Shown here one piece after another: positions 17,805 through 55,536 of a DNA stretch of 64,000 nt (the stretch's first letter is position 1; the number at the start of each line of letters is the position of its first letter). Below the pieces are notes generated by a model. It was given only the letters and a program-made list of their open reading frames with translations. It was not told the origin of the DNA and made no database searches. Source of the DNA: Octopus vulgaris (lineage: Eukaryota); assembly GCA_951406725.2 (NCBI GenBank), contig OX597819.1, positions 69,440,001 to 69,504,000 of the forward strand, in the 5' to 3' direction. A program made the translations under genes and the position numbers.

Positions 17805-18023
17805 CCGGAGTAAACACATAAATGTGAAACAAGGTGGAAAAAAGAGTACTCAAATACCAGTGGTAGAGTAATATGCTTTAATTAAAGCAGCAGAAAATTC
17901 AATAAAACCTGTTACTCTGAGTTTCCCGTTGCCGTTCGTCGGACAGTTTTTGCTAGCCGACGAACGGCAACGGGAAACTCAGAGTAACAGGTTTTGTTGA
18001 ATTTTCTGCTGCTTTAAATAAAG
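17805..18023 (-). mobile_element. HHR-bearing element family A, foldback copy in (TA)n
   Basis: Homologous to 55385-55536; 67-bp arms 17876-17942 and 17957-18023; minus-strand HHR aaaactgt-CCGACGA-acggcaacgg-GAAA-ctcagag-TA-acagg (U4C variant). Confidence 0.8.
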
Positions 18024-18669
18024 TATATATATATATATATATATATATATATATATATATATATATATATATATATATATATATATAATATATATATAGA
18101 TTTCTAGTTTACTACATAAACTACAGCATTGATTATTAGCATTTATAGCATGGCTAAAACTGGTGACTCCCGCAGTACGGAACAAGTATCGTATTCATTC
18201 TGAAGCCGCAGGTGTCCCCTGTAACAGACGTGGTAGGCAAAGTGTTAAAAAAATAAGAAAAAAGCTAAGTTTATTGCGTGAATCTGGAATATCTTACACA
18301 AGATTCGATAAAATGGATTGCGAAACAATTAGACAAACTAACAAAATAAACGAATATAATTTCAGTCTAATTAAATTTAATTATCGAACACAATAAGAAG
18401 CCAACATATTTCAAGCAGACAACTGTTGATGTTGATAATAAGTCACTTAATTAGAAATCATGCATTAATAATTAAATTTATATTAACATTATTGGATATA
18501 CGCCAGGAACGCAAACGCAGATACATACATCCATACATACATACGTATTTTGTACGTATCTCTATATATACTTAAACACACACATACATACACGCACACA
18601 CACATACATACACACACACACACATATATATATAGATATATACATATATGGGTGTTTTTATGTATATTA

Positions 18670-19310
18670 ACACATCAGCTGTGGTTGCGTGGGTAAGAAG
18701 GATGATTCCCAACCATGTGGTTTTGAGTTCAGTCCCGTCATTCTGCGTGGAACATTGGGCATATATCTTTTACTATTGCCTCCGGCCGACTTATACCTTG
18801 GGAGTATATTTGGTTAATGGAAACTGAAAGAAGCCTATTCTAAAGGCGACGAGCTGGCAGAAACGTTAGCACGACGGGCGAAATGCGTAACCGTATTTCG
18901 TCTGCCGTTAGGTTCTGAGTTCAAATTCCGCCGAGGTCGACTTTGCCTTTCATCCTTTCGGGGTCAATTAAATAAGTACCAGTTAGACACTGGGATCGAT
19001 ACAATCGACTTAATCCGTTTGTCTGTCCTTGTTTGTCCCTTATGTGTGGAGCCCATTGTAGGCAGTAAAGAATAAGAAAATTATTCTGTATATATGTGCG
19101 CCTGTGTTTTGTGTTTTTCTCTACTAAGGATTGCCAACCTGTGTTGGTTTGTTTACGTCCCAATGACTTACCGGTTAACGGCTCGACAAAACAGAAAATA
19201 TGGAATAATTACCAAATGTAAAATTAACTATTGGAATCGATTTGTTCGATGAAACCCTTCAGGGCGGAGCCCCGAACTGGTGGCATGACCACAGTCAAAT
19301 GATTGAAACA
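18670..19310 (+). mobile_element. Old CORE-like SINE interrupted by a Nin-domain SINE (18842-19075)
   Basis: CORE-like head up to gaaactgaaagaagcc, then aaggcgacgagctggcagaaacgttagc...gcctttcatcctttcggggtc, then the CORE-like tail resumes. Confidence 0.8.
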
Positions 19311-19579
19311 TATACGAACACCGATGTGGCAATGTGATAGGCTTCATAATTGTTGATGTATTAATTAACGTGAAACCAATGGTAGCCTTAATACACAAAT
19401 ACTGAATCGTTATTCACTACTGCAGTGCTGAGCACTCATTTTCATTGTCCAACATTGCGTACACACAATTTGTATATGTGTGTGTGTGTCTATATATATA
19501 TATATATATATATATATATATATATATATATATATGATTTATATATTGATTTATATATATATTGATTTTTTTCAATATG

Positions 19580-19777
19580 CTCCCATGTGTGTATATTTAG
19601 CGATTTTCTTTCTCCGTCTTCCCTTCTTTGGACTTTTTCTACATTTCTTACGAAGAGCTCCGCTCGAAACGTGAAAACTTTCTTTTCTTTCCTTTCCTGG
19701 GCGTCCAATAACACTGTACTGATTCCACGTCCTCGCGGTGTTGTTTTTTCTTACTTGTTCATGTTTGGATTGAGTAC
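19580..19777 (+). mobile_element. HHR-bearing element family B (inactivated copy) in (TA)n
   Basis: ttt-CTTACGA-A-gagc-tcc-gctc-GAAA-cg-TG-aaa at 19644-19676; homologous to 40310-40502. Confidence 0.7.
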
Positions 19778-20299
19778 ATATATATATATATATATATATA
19801 TATATATATATATTATATATATATATATGTGTGTGTGTGAAAAAATACATATATAAATATTTATATATATATATATATATATATATATATATATATATAT
19901 ATATATATATATGTCCAGAGACTTGTTTCTAATCGTTGTTGCCCTTCGTCCGTCCACTAATTTTATCAACTTTAATTGCATTTATTCCACATTTGTATAT
20001 ATGTACATATGTGTATGTGTGTTTGTGCGTGCGTGCGTGCGTGCGAGCGAGTGTGTGTGTCTTTATGTTTGAGTTTGTCCCCACTACCGTCTGACAATCG
20101 TATTTGGTCTGCTACGTCCCCATAACATAGAAGTTCTAGAAGCACTAGAATTTGATAGAGTGAGTAACTGGCTTTAAAAAATAGACTGGAATCGTTTCCA
20201 CCGGCTAAAAACTCCTCATGGTCGGAGTCGAATAATTAAAACTAGTAAGACATAAAAAGACATGTAAGCATATTTCCTTCTTTTGCAAATGAAACTCTC

Positions 20300-20640
20300 A
20301 GCTTCAATCCCACTGCGTGGCACCTTGGGCAAGTATCTTCCACTTTAGCCTCGGCCCGACCAAAGCTTTGTGAGTGGATTTGGTAGATAGAAACTGGAAG
20401 AAGCCCTTCGTATATATATATGTGTGTGTGTGTATGCGTGTGTATTTGTTTGTGAATCTATGTTTGTCCTCCCAACATCGCTAGGCAACCGATGCTGGTG
20501 TGTTTACGTCCCCGTAACTTACTGGTTCGGCAAAAACGACCGATAGAATAAGTACTAGGCTTGCAGAGAATACGTCCTGGGGTCGATTTGATCGACTAAA
20601 CGCTGTGCTCCAACAAGGCCGCACTCGAATGACTGAAACA
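20300..20640 (+). mobile_element. CORE-like SINE, 5'-truncated
   Basis: cccactgcgtggcaccttgggcaagt...gactgaaaca. Confidence 0.88.
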
Positions 20641-53224: not shown

Positions 53225-53407
53225 TCGATAGATCGCTAACAACCAAACATTTTCTATTTTCTCTCCCTGTTTATTTCTGTGTTCCTTTCTGTTGAAGAGC
53301 GTAGGCTCGAAACCTAAAAGACTTTCTCACTTGCCGAACGTTAAACTAATACATCTGTTTGTTTCTTACACACCCGTCTTTTGTTTTTTTTTTGTAAATT
53401 CTCACTA
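53225..53407 (+). mobile_element. HHR-bearing element family C
   Basis: 53285-53320: cttt-CTGTTGA-A-gagc-gtag-gctc-GAAA-cc-TA-aaag. Confidence 0.72.
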
Positions 53408-53424
53408 TATATATATATATATAT

Positions 53425-53735
53425 ATCACGTGATCACGTGACCGACCAGGCTATCAGATGTTGTTACACATCGCTGGTCACAATGTGCTTCGTATTGTTT
53501 TAGCCTTCAAATGACGCCACCCCGCTGGCTAAACGAGCAGGCCAACAGAAGAAAGAGTGAAAGAAAGTTGTGGCGGAAGAGTACAGCAGGGATCGCCACC
53601 ACCCCCTGCCGGAGCTTCATGGAGCTTTAGGTGTTTTCGCTCAATAAACACACACAACGTCCGGTCTGGGAATCGAAACCGCGATCCTCCGACCGCGAGT
53701 CCGCTGCCCTAACCACTGGGCCATTGCGCCTGCAC
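53425..53735 (-). mobile_element. Well-preserved tRNA-derived SINE (possibly Octopus OR-type)
   Basis: Minus strand: gcaatggcccagtggttagggcagcggactcgcggtcggaggatcgcggtttcgattccc (A/B boxes); tail ggtcacgtgatcacgtga(ta)n; family name tentative. Confidence 0.85.
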
Positions 53736-53998
53736 TCTATAAGGAACTGTTTTCGAACATGGATACAAATCCCCCATCCTTGCAATGTAGATGACGAAAA
53801 CAGCCAGATTTTAAACTTGCATATTTCTACCACTCTTCCGTTTACAGATTGTCTTTTTAAGGGGCATGTTAGAAGGTTGATTGCTTTTCCTTAAAACCCT
53901 GGAATATCCATACAGTCAGTTTGGTGTTTTCTCACAAAAAGAAGCGTACCAATTGTTGCTGGGATAAATTTAAATATGCAATATATATATATATATAT

Positions 53999-54195
53999 AG
54001 GGAGAGTTTACGAAAAAAACAAAAGACGAAGACAGGTGGTGTACAAAACAAACATATGTATTAGTATAACGCTCAGGAAGAGAAAAAAGTCTTTTACGTT
54101 TCGAGCCTACGCTCTTCTACAGAAATGGACACAGATAAAACAAAGAGGGAAACAAGGAGAGAAAAAAAGTGTGTAGTGGCTAACGATTTATCATA
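53999..54195 (-). mobile_element. HHR-bearing element family C in (TA)n
   Basis: Minus strand 54091-54126: attt-CTGTAGA-A-gagc-gtag-gctc-GAAA-cg-TA-aaag. Confidence 0.78.
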
Positions 54196-54434
54196 TATAT
54201 ATATATATATATATACATATATATATATATATATATAGGAAAAAAGCAACAAGAATGGATTAAAATATCGGTATTTACCGATATTTTAATACATTTGTAA
54301 TCACCCCACTTGTCGTATGGTTAACACAATATAGATTTCCGGTGCATCCTAGTTAAGGACCATATTCATGTGAATTCATTAGAACTCACTTGAATCTCAA
54401 TTACTTAAACCGAGTATATATATATATATATATA

Positions 54435-55536
54435 CTTTATTTTAAGCAGCAGAAAAATCAACAAAATCTGTTACTCTGAGTTTCTCGTTGCCGTTCATCA
54501 GACAGTTTTTGCTAGAATGGAACATATATATTAATTCAATCTATACTCTTACAAACGCTACACCTTTAAAAAGAAATGGACTTGTTTGATTGGCCCTTTA
54601 GAAAAAACGGTCAATATTTTTATTAATGCACCCATTTTTTAAAAGCAATGTTTTTTTATAAAAAAAGCAATGTTGTCAAATTTAGAATGTTTATATAAGT
54701 TTGTGTATAGCAAAGCATATGTATTTGTAAGCATGCGTATCTGTGTATGTGTGAGTGAAAGTATGCTTGTGCTTAAGCACACATATACACGACGGTATGT
54801 ATATGTATCAATTCAAACTTGTGTATGTATACAGGCCTCTATAGATGCCAAATAACATCGCTACAATTTTTTCCCCACCCCTCCTCCGTTCCTTTTTCTC
54901 TCTTTCCCTTTCTTTCGTTCCCCCTCCTTGCTCAGTATATGAGAATTGCTACATAGATGAATTTTAGCTTGCGTGCGAGACGGTTTGCGTGAATATATGT
55001 ACACATGCTTTTATGTGTATAATTTAGATTCATATTCATACGTCTGTATATGTATGTATGGCGTTTACGCGCATCCTTTTGTGTATGTTGATATATATAT
55101 GTGGATTTTAATATAAATATGTATTGCAGTATTTATAACAGGTTTAATTTCTATGCATTAATTTGTACTGTCTTCATTAACGGCAACAGGTTTTTTCCTC
55201 GGTATTTTCCTCGGATTTTATAATTTTTATAAGTTTTTATATATATATACATATATTTTTGACCTTTTTGTTTATCGCTCGAAGATTGACCGTTTTTTCT
55301 AAAGGGCCAATCAAACAAGTCCATTTCTTTTTAAAGGTGTAGCGTTTGTAAGAGTATAGATTGAATTAATATATATGTTCCATTCTAGCAAAAACTGTCT
55401 GATGAACGGCAACGAGAAACTCAGAGTAACAGATTTTGTTGATTTTTCTGCTGCTTAAAATAAAGCATATTACTCTACCACTGGTATTTGAGTACTCTTT
55501 TTTCCACCTTGTTTCACATTTATGTGTTTACTCCGG
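54435..55536 (+). mobile_element. Penelope-like non-autonomous element (family A) with 181-bp inverted pLTRs, in (TA)n
   Basis: 54435-54615 appears to be the exact revcomp of 55285-55465; 71-nt extra 3' tail to ctccgg; each arm holds an HHR. Confidence 0.85.
55391..55437 (+). ncRNA. Minimal type I hammerhead ribozyme (family A)
   Basis: aaaactgt-CTGATGA-a-cg-gcaa-cg-a-GAAA-ctc-a-gag-TA-acag-a-tttt; GUA site; mirror copy on minus strand at 54463-54509; 10.1/11.1 pair is mismatched. Confidence 0.75.

Follow-up and report, generated by a model that had tools for sequence, protein, structure and literature searches.

We have examined a 64,000-nt window of the Octopus vulgaris genome (assembly GCA_951406725.2, contig OX597819.1, positions 69440001–69504000; in our notation contig C6 of genome G000, a genome of 2.8 Gb in 227 contigs) that is rich in short cassettes carrying hammerhead ribozyme motifs. 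The motifs are real and occur far above chance. The window as a whole is probably the debris of Penelope-like element (PLE) retrotransposition into (TA)n, which supplied the ends that we call families A, B, C and 47994, together with a 536-nt unit, the 38083 element, that is likely to be a retrozyme copied in trans. The direct evidence comprises the open reading frames (ORFs) of the parents, the numbers of copies, the (TA)n that borders the insertions, their 5′-truncated form with arms in inverse orientation, and tandem insertions of the 536-nt unit that exceed one unit in length.

Hammerhead motifs in the window and across the genome

Motifs were sought with a type I descriptor that tolerated no more than one mismatch in the core and required at least three pairs in helix I, at least two in helix II, and a palindromic helix III. 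Positions are given in hammerhead numbering, relative to the hammerhead core consensus. Both agree with the account of Cervera & de la Pena (2014, PMC4209133). The descriptor finds 8 matches in the window, as against a mean of 0.4 (maximum 3) in 40 block-wise dinucleotide shuffles, and 3 perfect-core matches, as against none in all 40; the match at 28504 probably reflects chance. Altogether there are 14 motif copies, and a perfect core with all three helices is present in three only (38373+, 54501− and 55399+), the latter two being family A motifs with a helix II of just 2 bp. Mutated copies include those at 17942 and 17957 (U4C), 19647 (core change, with N17=G), 40429 (A9C), 47998 (C3U) and 51231 (U4A). 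A pair of related CUGAUGA...GAAAC motifs at 28660–28711 (−) and 55912–55950 (+) has an unconvincing helix II, and may represent a further decayed hammerhead family.

The original prediction, made from the letters of the window, described these cassettes, and we located and clustered them as it had. The observation is partly confirmed. A type I hammerhead had been claimed for each cassette, but beyond the three complete copies the motifs are altered in the core or in a helix, both motifs of the 43512 element lacking helix I, and the tail at 22757, counted among the family A motifs, is a fragment with no hammerhead. The cassettes were said to be ORF-less, which holds for every hammerhead copy in the window, where an ORF scan found no long non-repetitive ORF; as families, however, A, B, C and 47994 do have ORF-coding parents elsewhere in the genome. 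They were also said to lie mostly in (TA)n, and this sequence does adjoin the A, B, C, 38083 and 43512 copies, though not the 47994 copy. Microsatellites are plentiful in the window; simple repeats dominate a repeat search of it, and microsatellite look-alikes of miRNAs dominate an Rfam search, in which no hammerhead appears among the 150 of 265 matches listed.

A genome sample of 1.0 Mb, consisting of five 200-kb blocks chosen blind, contains 37 perfect-core matches, 34 of them strong, with 2–12 per block. Four scrambled cores and the reversed DNA gave none, GAAA decoys gave 2 and 1, and five shuffles of the sample gave 0–3 perfect-core matches as against 35. The core boxes are more than 35 nt apart in 20 of the 34 strong matches, whose helix III takes 19 different, mostly palindromic sequences and whose helix I pairs are specific to each family, a variety and abundance in keeping with the prediction of a very abundant and diverse ribozyme population. 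The predicted (TA)n bias is also seen, with (TA)n downstream of 38 of 59 sampled motifs compared to 21% of random windows. Extrapolation gives a genome total of about 95,000, with a Poisson interval (66,000–133,000) that is too narrow because the matches are clumped, inverted and tandem copies being counted separately. A density of about 34 per Mb would place this genome among the most hammerhead-rich; more than 6,000 motifs are reported for Acropora, about 5,000 for Mytilus, and up to 120,000 for the far larger axolotl genome (PMC7229834). The sample also contains at least 7 distinct loci with direct-repeat hammerhead units of 370–599 nt whose ATG-initiated ORFs do not exceed 80 aa, and a limited probe set detects a PLE ORF within 2.5 kb upstream of 1 of 50 sampled hammerheads. 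We set aside a four-copy cluster with an AATT helix III (scores of at most 8, below the strong threshold), whose members are apparent chance matches in another repeat.

Penelope-like parents of families A, B, C and 47994

Of 263 candidates for the 152-nt end of family A, 40 were scored, and identical copies number at least 40. Among 30 loci (L001–L030), (TA)n follows this end in 26, directly in 19 and after two extra bases in 7, and the element's own 5′ end follows it in the remaining 4. The two extra bases are the 5′ start of the element, which suggests that the template RNA reads through the pseudo-long terminal repeat (pLTR) into the next unit. The ORF of the element lies within 1.5 kb of the end in 18 of the 30 loci. 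In a natural full-length copy (L031) this ORF is preceded by a pLTR and followed, beyond about 1.1 kb of 3′ region, by another, the whole repeating every 3.36 kb. All 101 ORF matches scored are 99–100% identical and stop-free over the query, giving at least 101 near-identical copies; a 727-codon open frame is common to about 29 copies by our count, and a 711-aa ORF is present in all seven checked. The 5′ ends of the family vary widely among copies.

The 711-aa protein combines a reverse transcriptase (RT) and, at its C-terminus, a GIY-YIG endonuclease (GVVY..YTG motif) in a single ORF, and has RWK, DKT in place of DKG, YRDD, and CxxC and CxH motifs flanking E and N residues. Searches of Pfam and of PDB sequences with this ORF gave no match, and its look-alikes in a protein atlas carry HTH_animal, GIY-YIG and RVT_1 domains. 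The parent also has the (TA)n insertion, pLTR hammerhead and tandem or inverted structure typical of Hydra-clade PLEs, and we assign family A to the pLTR and 3′ ends of a very young Hydra-clade element encoding RT and GIY-YIG. Membership of the Naiad group was ruled out by the C-terminal endonuclease and the DKT motif. Of 36 copies, 5 retain the CxCX5C linker and 31 have CxF instead, a ratio biased by the query, itself a CxF copy. Both linker variants occur among near-identical Hydra ORFs (L176–L205), and both have apparently multiplied.

Hydra PLEs with a hammerhead and a (TA)n preference have already been published for an octopus: in the list of Craig et al. (2021, PMC8557442), (TA)n is the insertion site of nearly all of the 27 Hydra families, one of which is the hammerhead-bearing Hydra-1_Obim of Octopus bimaculoides. 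These elements share with the family A parent the RWK and DKT motifs, the C-terminal GIY-YIG, the CxxC and CxH around E/N and the (TA)n insertion, as well as a palindromic helix III of 4 bp plus 1 (several listed Hydra hammerheads have a 4+1+4 helix III; PMC8557442) and an inverted 5′ copy that lacks the tail. Inspection of the printed protein and hammerhead indicates that Hydra-1_Obim and the family A parent belong to separate families; the latter is longer (3.36 kb, with a 3′ region of about 1.1 kb), very young and high in copy number, has a 2-bp helix II, and reads CxF at the linker in 31 of 36 query-biased copies. In L288, the family B cassette has downstream of it another Hydra-clade ORF, whose identity to the protein of family A is 41% and which looks similar by eye to Hydra-1_Obim.

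Families B and C, with 2,681 and 2,613 first-look candidates respectively, are assigned to the pLTRs of older Neptune-type PLEs, on motifs that do not separate Neptune from Nematis. Four of 30 family B leader loci run on into an RT with an N-terminal GxRF and DKG (the walk did not reach the endonuclease), and in 9 of 30 extended family C loci a YIDD RT, a CxxxxCxxC zinc linker and a GIY-YIG domain lie upstream. A Neptune-type GIY-YIG remnant 47–68% identical to the family C parent is present in the upstream neighbour of the window (L034:5000-5431). The minimal core is canonical in 26 of 30 family B copies, while 29 of 30 family C copies have CUGUAGA, a fixed A6U change, and diverged family C subfamilies keep the U at position 6 with a variable N7; a natural A6C hammerhead variant has low activity (PMC3088659). 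The 47994 family (3,640 candidates) is likewise assigned to the 3′ end of an old PLE, since its sequence continues upstream for more than 900 nt and, in one locus (L208), into a decayed zinc linker and GIY-YIG; its count in the 1-Mb sample, spoiled by a (CA)n tail in the reference, was set aside. The 51227 motif is an old Hydra-type remnant with 7 relatives, and no parent ORF was seen in 8 loci. Tc1/mariner-like transposase fragments occur near PLE stubs in L146 and L281.

In the original prediction all of these families were independent non-autonomous retrozymes, a claim that fails for A, B, C and 47994, each of which is contiguous with a PLE ORF in other copies. Its link to PLEs is upheld by the same parent ORFs, and the check that it proposed, a search for Penelope ORFs (RT plus GIY-YIG) with the same pLTR, found them intact for A, as RT, linker and GIY-YIG for C, as part of the RT for B, and decayed for 47994.

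The cassettes of families B and C differ from those of A in having a sharp 5′ end. In a survey with queries reaching to −71 from C3, the 5′ ends lie between −87 and −71 in 30 of 30 family B copies and between −83 and −74 in 24 of 30 family C copies. The sequences TCATTC at −85 in B and TCAGTC at −83 in C adjoin this pile-up; judged by the initiator (Inr) consensus, both are Inr-like. The pile-up site, 75–85 nt before the core, is likely to be a transcription start in the pLTR, and the stubs that gather there would then each represent a whole short pLTR RNA, in the manner of a short interspersed element (SINE), and would not be random truncations. In addition, 25 of 30 leader-bearing family B loci have the leader cut at 96–840 nt and fused directly to a cassette, which starts between −85 and −73 in 13 of the 25 (L293, with an 842-nt gap, was not counted). 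These fusions create ORF-less hammerhead-to-hammerhead units of about 440–690 nt and provide a plausible route from PLE to retrozyme. The minimal hammerheads described in Neptune and Poseidon pLTRs (PMC4209133) resemble those of B and C in the extra nucleotide after A9, the G10.1–C11.1 pair, the palindromic ACGU helix III and the short helix I, and also in being mostly single motifs from truncated PLEs, with opposite-strand pairs; the fixed A6U of family C, the B and C stubs ending at one Inr-like site, and the frequent leader-cassette fusions of B set the octopus families apart.

The 38083 and 43512 units

The 38083 hammerhead has a perfect core, a helix I of 7 bp that can be extended past one mismatch, an 8-nt palindromic helix III, and a helix II of 4 bp with an AU-rich insertion of about 43 nt; an initial regular expression missed it because of this long stem II. 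The longest ATG-initiated ORF in the 536-nt unit is 46 aa. The family has 1,780 first-look candidates, with 96–100% identity among those scored, and its copies are dispersed over many contigs, mostly with (TA)n borders. It shows the hallmarks of a retrozyme: the tandem repeat is AT-rich, has no ORF, and carries a type I hammerhead in successive units. One array, on C9, has at least 21 units, a natural dimer lies at 108.84 Mb of C4, and the units of the L138 array show no differences. All ten dispersed loci examined exceed one unit (683–1,099 nt) and span the cleavage site, with permuted ends, 3′ ends mostly at AT-rich sites, and inverted arms in several. In 5 of the 10 loci, both units share locus-specific variants absent from the other loci examined, seven of them in L126, which fits repeated copying of one monomer, either around a circle or by template jumping. 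The 38083 unit is likely to be a young non-LTR retrozyme whose RNA would cut itself and would be copied in trans by PLEs.

Neither the 38083 nor the 43512 arrays contain a trace of PLE protein, and Rfam reports no hammerhead in them at E≤10; a SNORD90 match was rejected, its 25.6 bits falling below the cut-off of 41. Contigs of three sequencing runs, guessed to derive from RNA, cover 24–29 of 30 bins of the 38083 element; they are blind to ends, strand and circles, and we draw no conclusion from them.

Animal non-LTR retrozymes (Cervera & de la Pena 2020, PMC7229834; Li, Clavereau & Pollet 2026, 10.64898/2026.07.22.740005) are similarly ORF-less, AT-rich tandem units with one type I hammerhead per unit, range from monomers to long arrays, coexist with PLEs and have no LTR. 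The reported unit lengths are 150–450 nt (PMC7229834) and 51–972 nt (10.64898/2026.07.22.740005), compared with 536 nt here. The 38083 element, a putative member of this class, is distinguished by the long stem II insertion, the 8-nt palindromic helix III, the (TA)n borders and the inverted arms.

The 43512 family has 804 candidates, a longest ATG-initiated ORF of 112 aa, and tandem and inverted insertions in (TA)n. Helix I is absent, however, and the GAAA box is present in 6 of 20 distinct loci, with GGAA in the other 14; type III and long-range readings of the motif were tried and gained no helix I. This unit is mobile in the manner of a retrozyme, but its hammerhead is incomplete and it is not classed as one. 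Naiad PLEs listed with 'HHR_core' only (PMC8557442) similarly have core-like boxes in (TA)n with an incomplete fold, but the 43512 unit lacks their ORF. No long similarity links the 38083 and 43512 units to each other or to the family A ends. A 22-nt motif on the hammerhead strand is common to the 43512 unit and to hammerhead units of 596/599 nt (in L111 and in the C14 block of the 1-Mb sample), and 43512 may descend from a unit of that type.

Table 1. Features of the window, with coordinates relative to its first nucleotide
Coordinates	Strand	Feature	Details
17805..17956	−	Family A, last 152 nt of Hydra-clade PLE	Hammerhead 17913-17942 with U4C; 94.7% identical to natural full-length copy in L031
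17959..18024	+	Family A, inverted tail-less fragment	Hairpin insertion in (TA)n
19571..19780	+	Family B cassette, from pLTR of Neptune-type PLE	Motif 19647-19673 decayed (core change, N17=G)
22762..22811	+	Family A tail fragment	No hammerhead
26537..26708	−	Family C cassette, from pLTR of second Neptune-type PLE	Motif 26632-26659, CUGUAGA core, helix III broken
38083..38732	+	38083 element: ORF-less 536-nt tandem unit plus 113-nt repeat of its start	In (TA)n; retrozyme-like
38366..38449	+	Complete type I hammerhead of 38083 element	C3 at 38373; predicted cut after C 38442 (GUC)
40301..40505	−	Family B cassette	Minimal hammerhead 40403-40429 with A9C
43512..44560		43512 element: ORF-less 548-nt tandem unit, in (TA)n	Rearranged inverted part (43513-43825, −) plus 1.3 units (+)
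43564-43611; 44038-44085	−; +	Hammerhead-core-like motifs of 43512 element	No helix I
47882..48179	+	Old PLE family 3′ end (47949-48179) with short inverted fragment (47882-47948)	Motif 47998-48031 with C3U
51227..51335	+	Old Hydra-type hammerhead remnant	C3 51231, N17 51268, U4A; relatives 72-79% identical
53227..53407	+	Family C subfamily cassette	Motif 53289-53316, CUGUUGA core, helix III broken
53998..54194	−	Family C cassette	Motif 54095-54122, CUGUAGA core
54430..54618	−	Family A, inverted tail-less 5′ copy (189 nt)	Intact hammerhead 54472-54501
54614..55536	+	Family A, last 934 nt (3′ UTR and pLTR) of 3.36-kb Hydra-clade PLE	98.6% identical to L031; intact hammerhead 55399-55428

Mechanism, alternatives and known relatives

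We propose that the GIY-YIG endonuclease would nick (TA)n and that the RT would prime at a TA-like site of the RNA, with early stops leaving short pLTR stubs and switches of strand or template giving the inverted and tandem arms. For families B and C, the RT may copy a short pLTR-promoter RNA to its 5′ end, from which it could jump to another template. Tandem transcripts of the 38083 unit would cut themselves in dimeric form by way of the palindromic helix III, and the 536-nt monomers, whether circularised or joined by template jumps, would be copied more than once round; the 43512 unit may be copied in the same way with no working hammerhead.

Several points weigh against this reading. Homogeneous source arrays that escaped our view would give the same shared variants in the 38083 units. 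Cleavage may be dispensable, as L126, the sole 38083 locus with a core change (U4C, in both units), family C with its A6U core, and 43512 with no helix I have all multiplied although none has a canonical ribozyme. Folded at its lowest energy (z = −4.2), the 38083 motif retains helix I but mispairs in the core; the single 38083 copy in the 1-Mb sample is 333 nt and thus below unit length; and comparison of the unit with the family A PLE as a candidate helper revealed no sequence in common. In vitro, 8 of 9 predicted Xenopus retrozyme dimers remained uncleaved and one was cleaved (10.64898/2026.07.22.740005), and PLE minimal hammerheads cleave poorly (PMC4209133). The 5′ pile-up is weaker in the unbiased 1-Mb sample, with 4 of 7 family B and 7 of 20 family C copies near the site and noisy ends in diverged copies, the loci used for the 5′-end and length counts having been ranked by match to the query; and the clade assignments of all PLEs here rest on motifs.

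An alternative that we consider unlikely, though deserving of attention, is that all of the cassettes are passive PLE debris, the 38083 and 43512 units being internally deleted PLEs or pLTR-leader fusions made from linear tandem transcripts or RT jumps, with hitch-hiking hammerheads and no circles. The family B fusions indeed yield ORF-less hammerhead-to-hammerhead units for which circles are not needed, core-mutant families and copies have spread, and Craig et al. have suggested that hammerheads may merely parasitise PLEs (PMC8557442). Against this, the frequency of perfect cores in the 1-Mb sample, their varied and mostly palindromic helix III sequences and their family-specific helix I pairs point to selection for cleavage across many families, and the 38083 and 43512 arrays are free of PLE protein traces.

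It is improbable, as the original prediction had it, that A, B, C, 38083, 43512 and the decayed motifs are all independent non-autonomous ribozyme retroelements. Every window copy is ORF-less, the abundant B and C cassettes (more than 2,600 first-look candidates each) have their sharp 5′ end, and a limited probe set rarely detects a PLE ORF upstream of the sampled hammerheads, all of which would suit such elements; but the contiguity of A, B, C and 47994 with PLE ORFs speaks against independence and already refutes it for A, the 5′ ends of A vary widely, and 43512 has no helix I. Non-autonomous ORF-less units do exist, as represented by 38083, 43512 and 7 more loci in the 1-Mb sample, and here the earlier interpretation was right; taken as a whole, it is partly supported. 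We regard it as very improbable that 38083 and 43512 are satellites or minisatellites spread at the DNA level with incidental motifs, for although homogeneous long arrays such as L138 exist, the copies lie on many contigs, mostly with (TA)n borders, permuted ends and inverted 5′ arms like those of neighbouring PLE insertions.

PLE hammerheads and animal retrozymes are already known, and the Hydra- and Neptune-type PLE ends and the one good non-LTR retrozyme candidate are further members of these classes. Single motifs from truncated PLEs have been described (Cervera & de la Pena 2014, PMC4209133), and the derivation of retrozymes from PLE pLTRs is argued in a preprint (10.64898/2026.07.22.740005) whose four invertebrates, in the text available, include no mollusc. 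The words 'octopus' and 'cephalopod' are absent from the main text of PMC7229834; the giant squid has 235 Rfam hammerheads (PMC6962438), and 31 recently active Penelope-like families are reported for Octopus vulgaris, with no mention of ribozymes noticed in the available part of that report (PMC13282606). Our search of the literature outside subscription sources, Repbase and Dfam found no report of octopus retrozymes or of such a hammerhead density in cephalopods; the families described here may already be catalogued as Penelope or SINE repeats.

What is added is a testable system within one genome. Its Hydra-clade RT/endonuclease is intact and very young and has (TA)n as a simple target; beside it occurs a young ORF-less unit with a perfect hammerhead, and 43512 and family C provide natural controls that lack a canonical ribozyme. 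The system touches on the function of the hammerhead in PLEs and on the question of whether retrozymes are mobilised by these elements, and its points of interest are the hammerhead density, the long stem II, the family with fixed A6U and the birth intermediates. We entertain, as possible if on balance doubtful, a more far-reaching picture, in which the genome would hold tens of thousands of copies of many (TA)n-targeted retrozyme families of 370–600 nt, with a long-stem-II hammerhead missed by Rfam and circular-RNA replication, the circles being among the abundant non-coding RNAs of the animal; a currently active Hydra-clade RT would be the carrier, the family B fusions would be snapshots of retrozyme birth from a PLE, and the A6U of family C would be either a working natural variant or proof of ribozyme loss.

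The window also contains other repeats. A very abundant interspersed SINE-like repeat is present in both orientations, with copies 69–95% identical, at 11476-11755, 13127-13453, 16487-17729, 20303-20640, 35338-35583, 40662-41087, 53036-53212 and 57009-57233, and ARAGORN finds no tRNA in this family. A 253-nt tandem duplicate at 34353-34825 starts with a tRNA-like A box and is probably another SINE.

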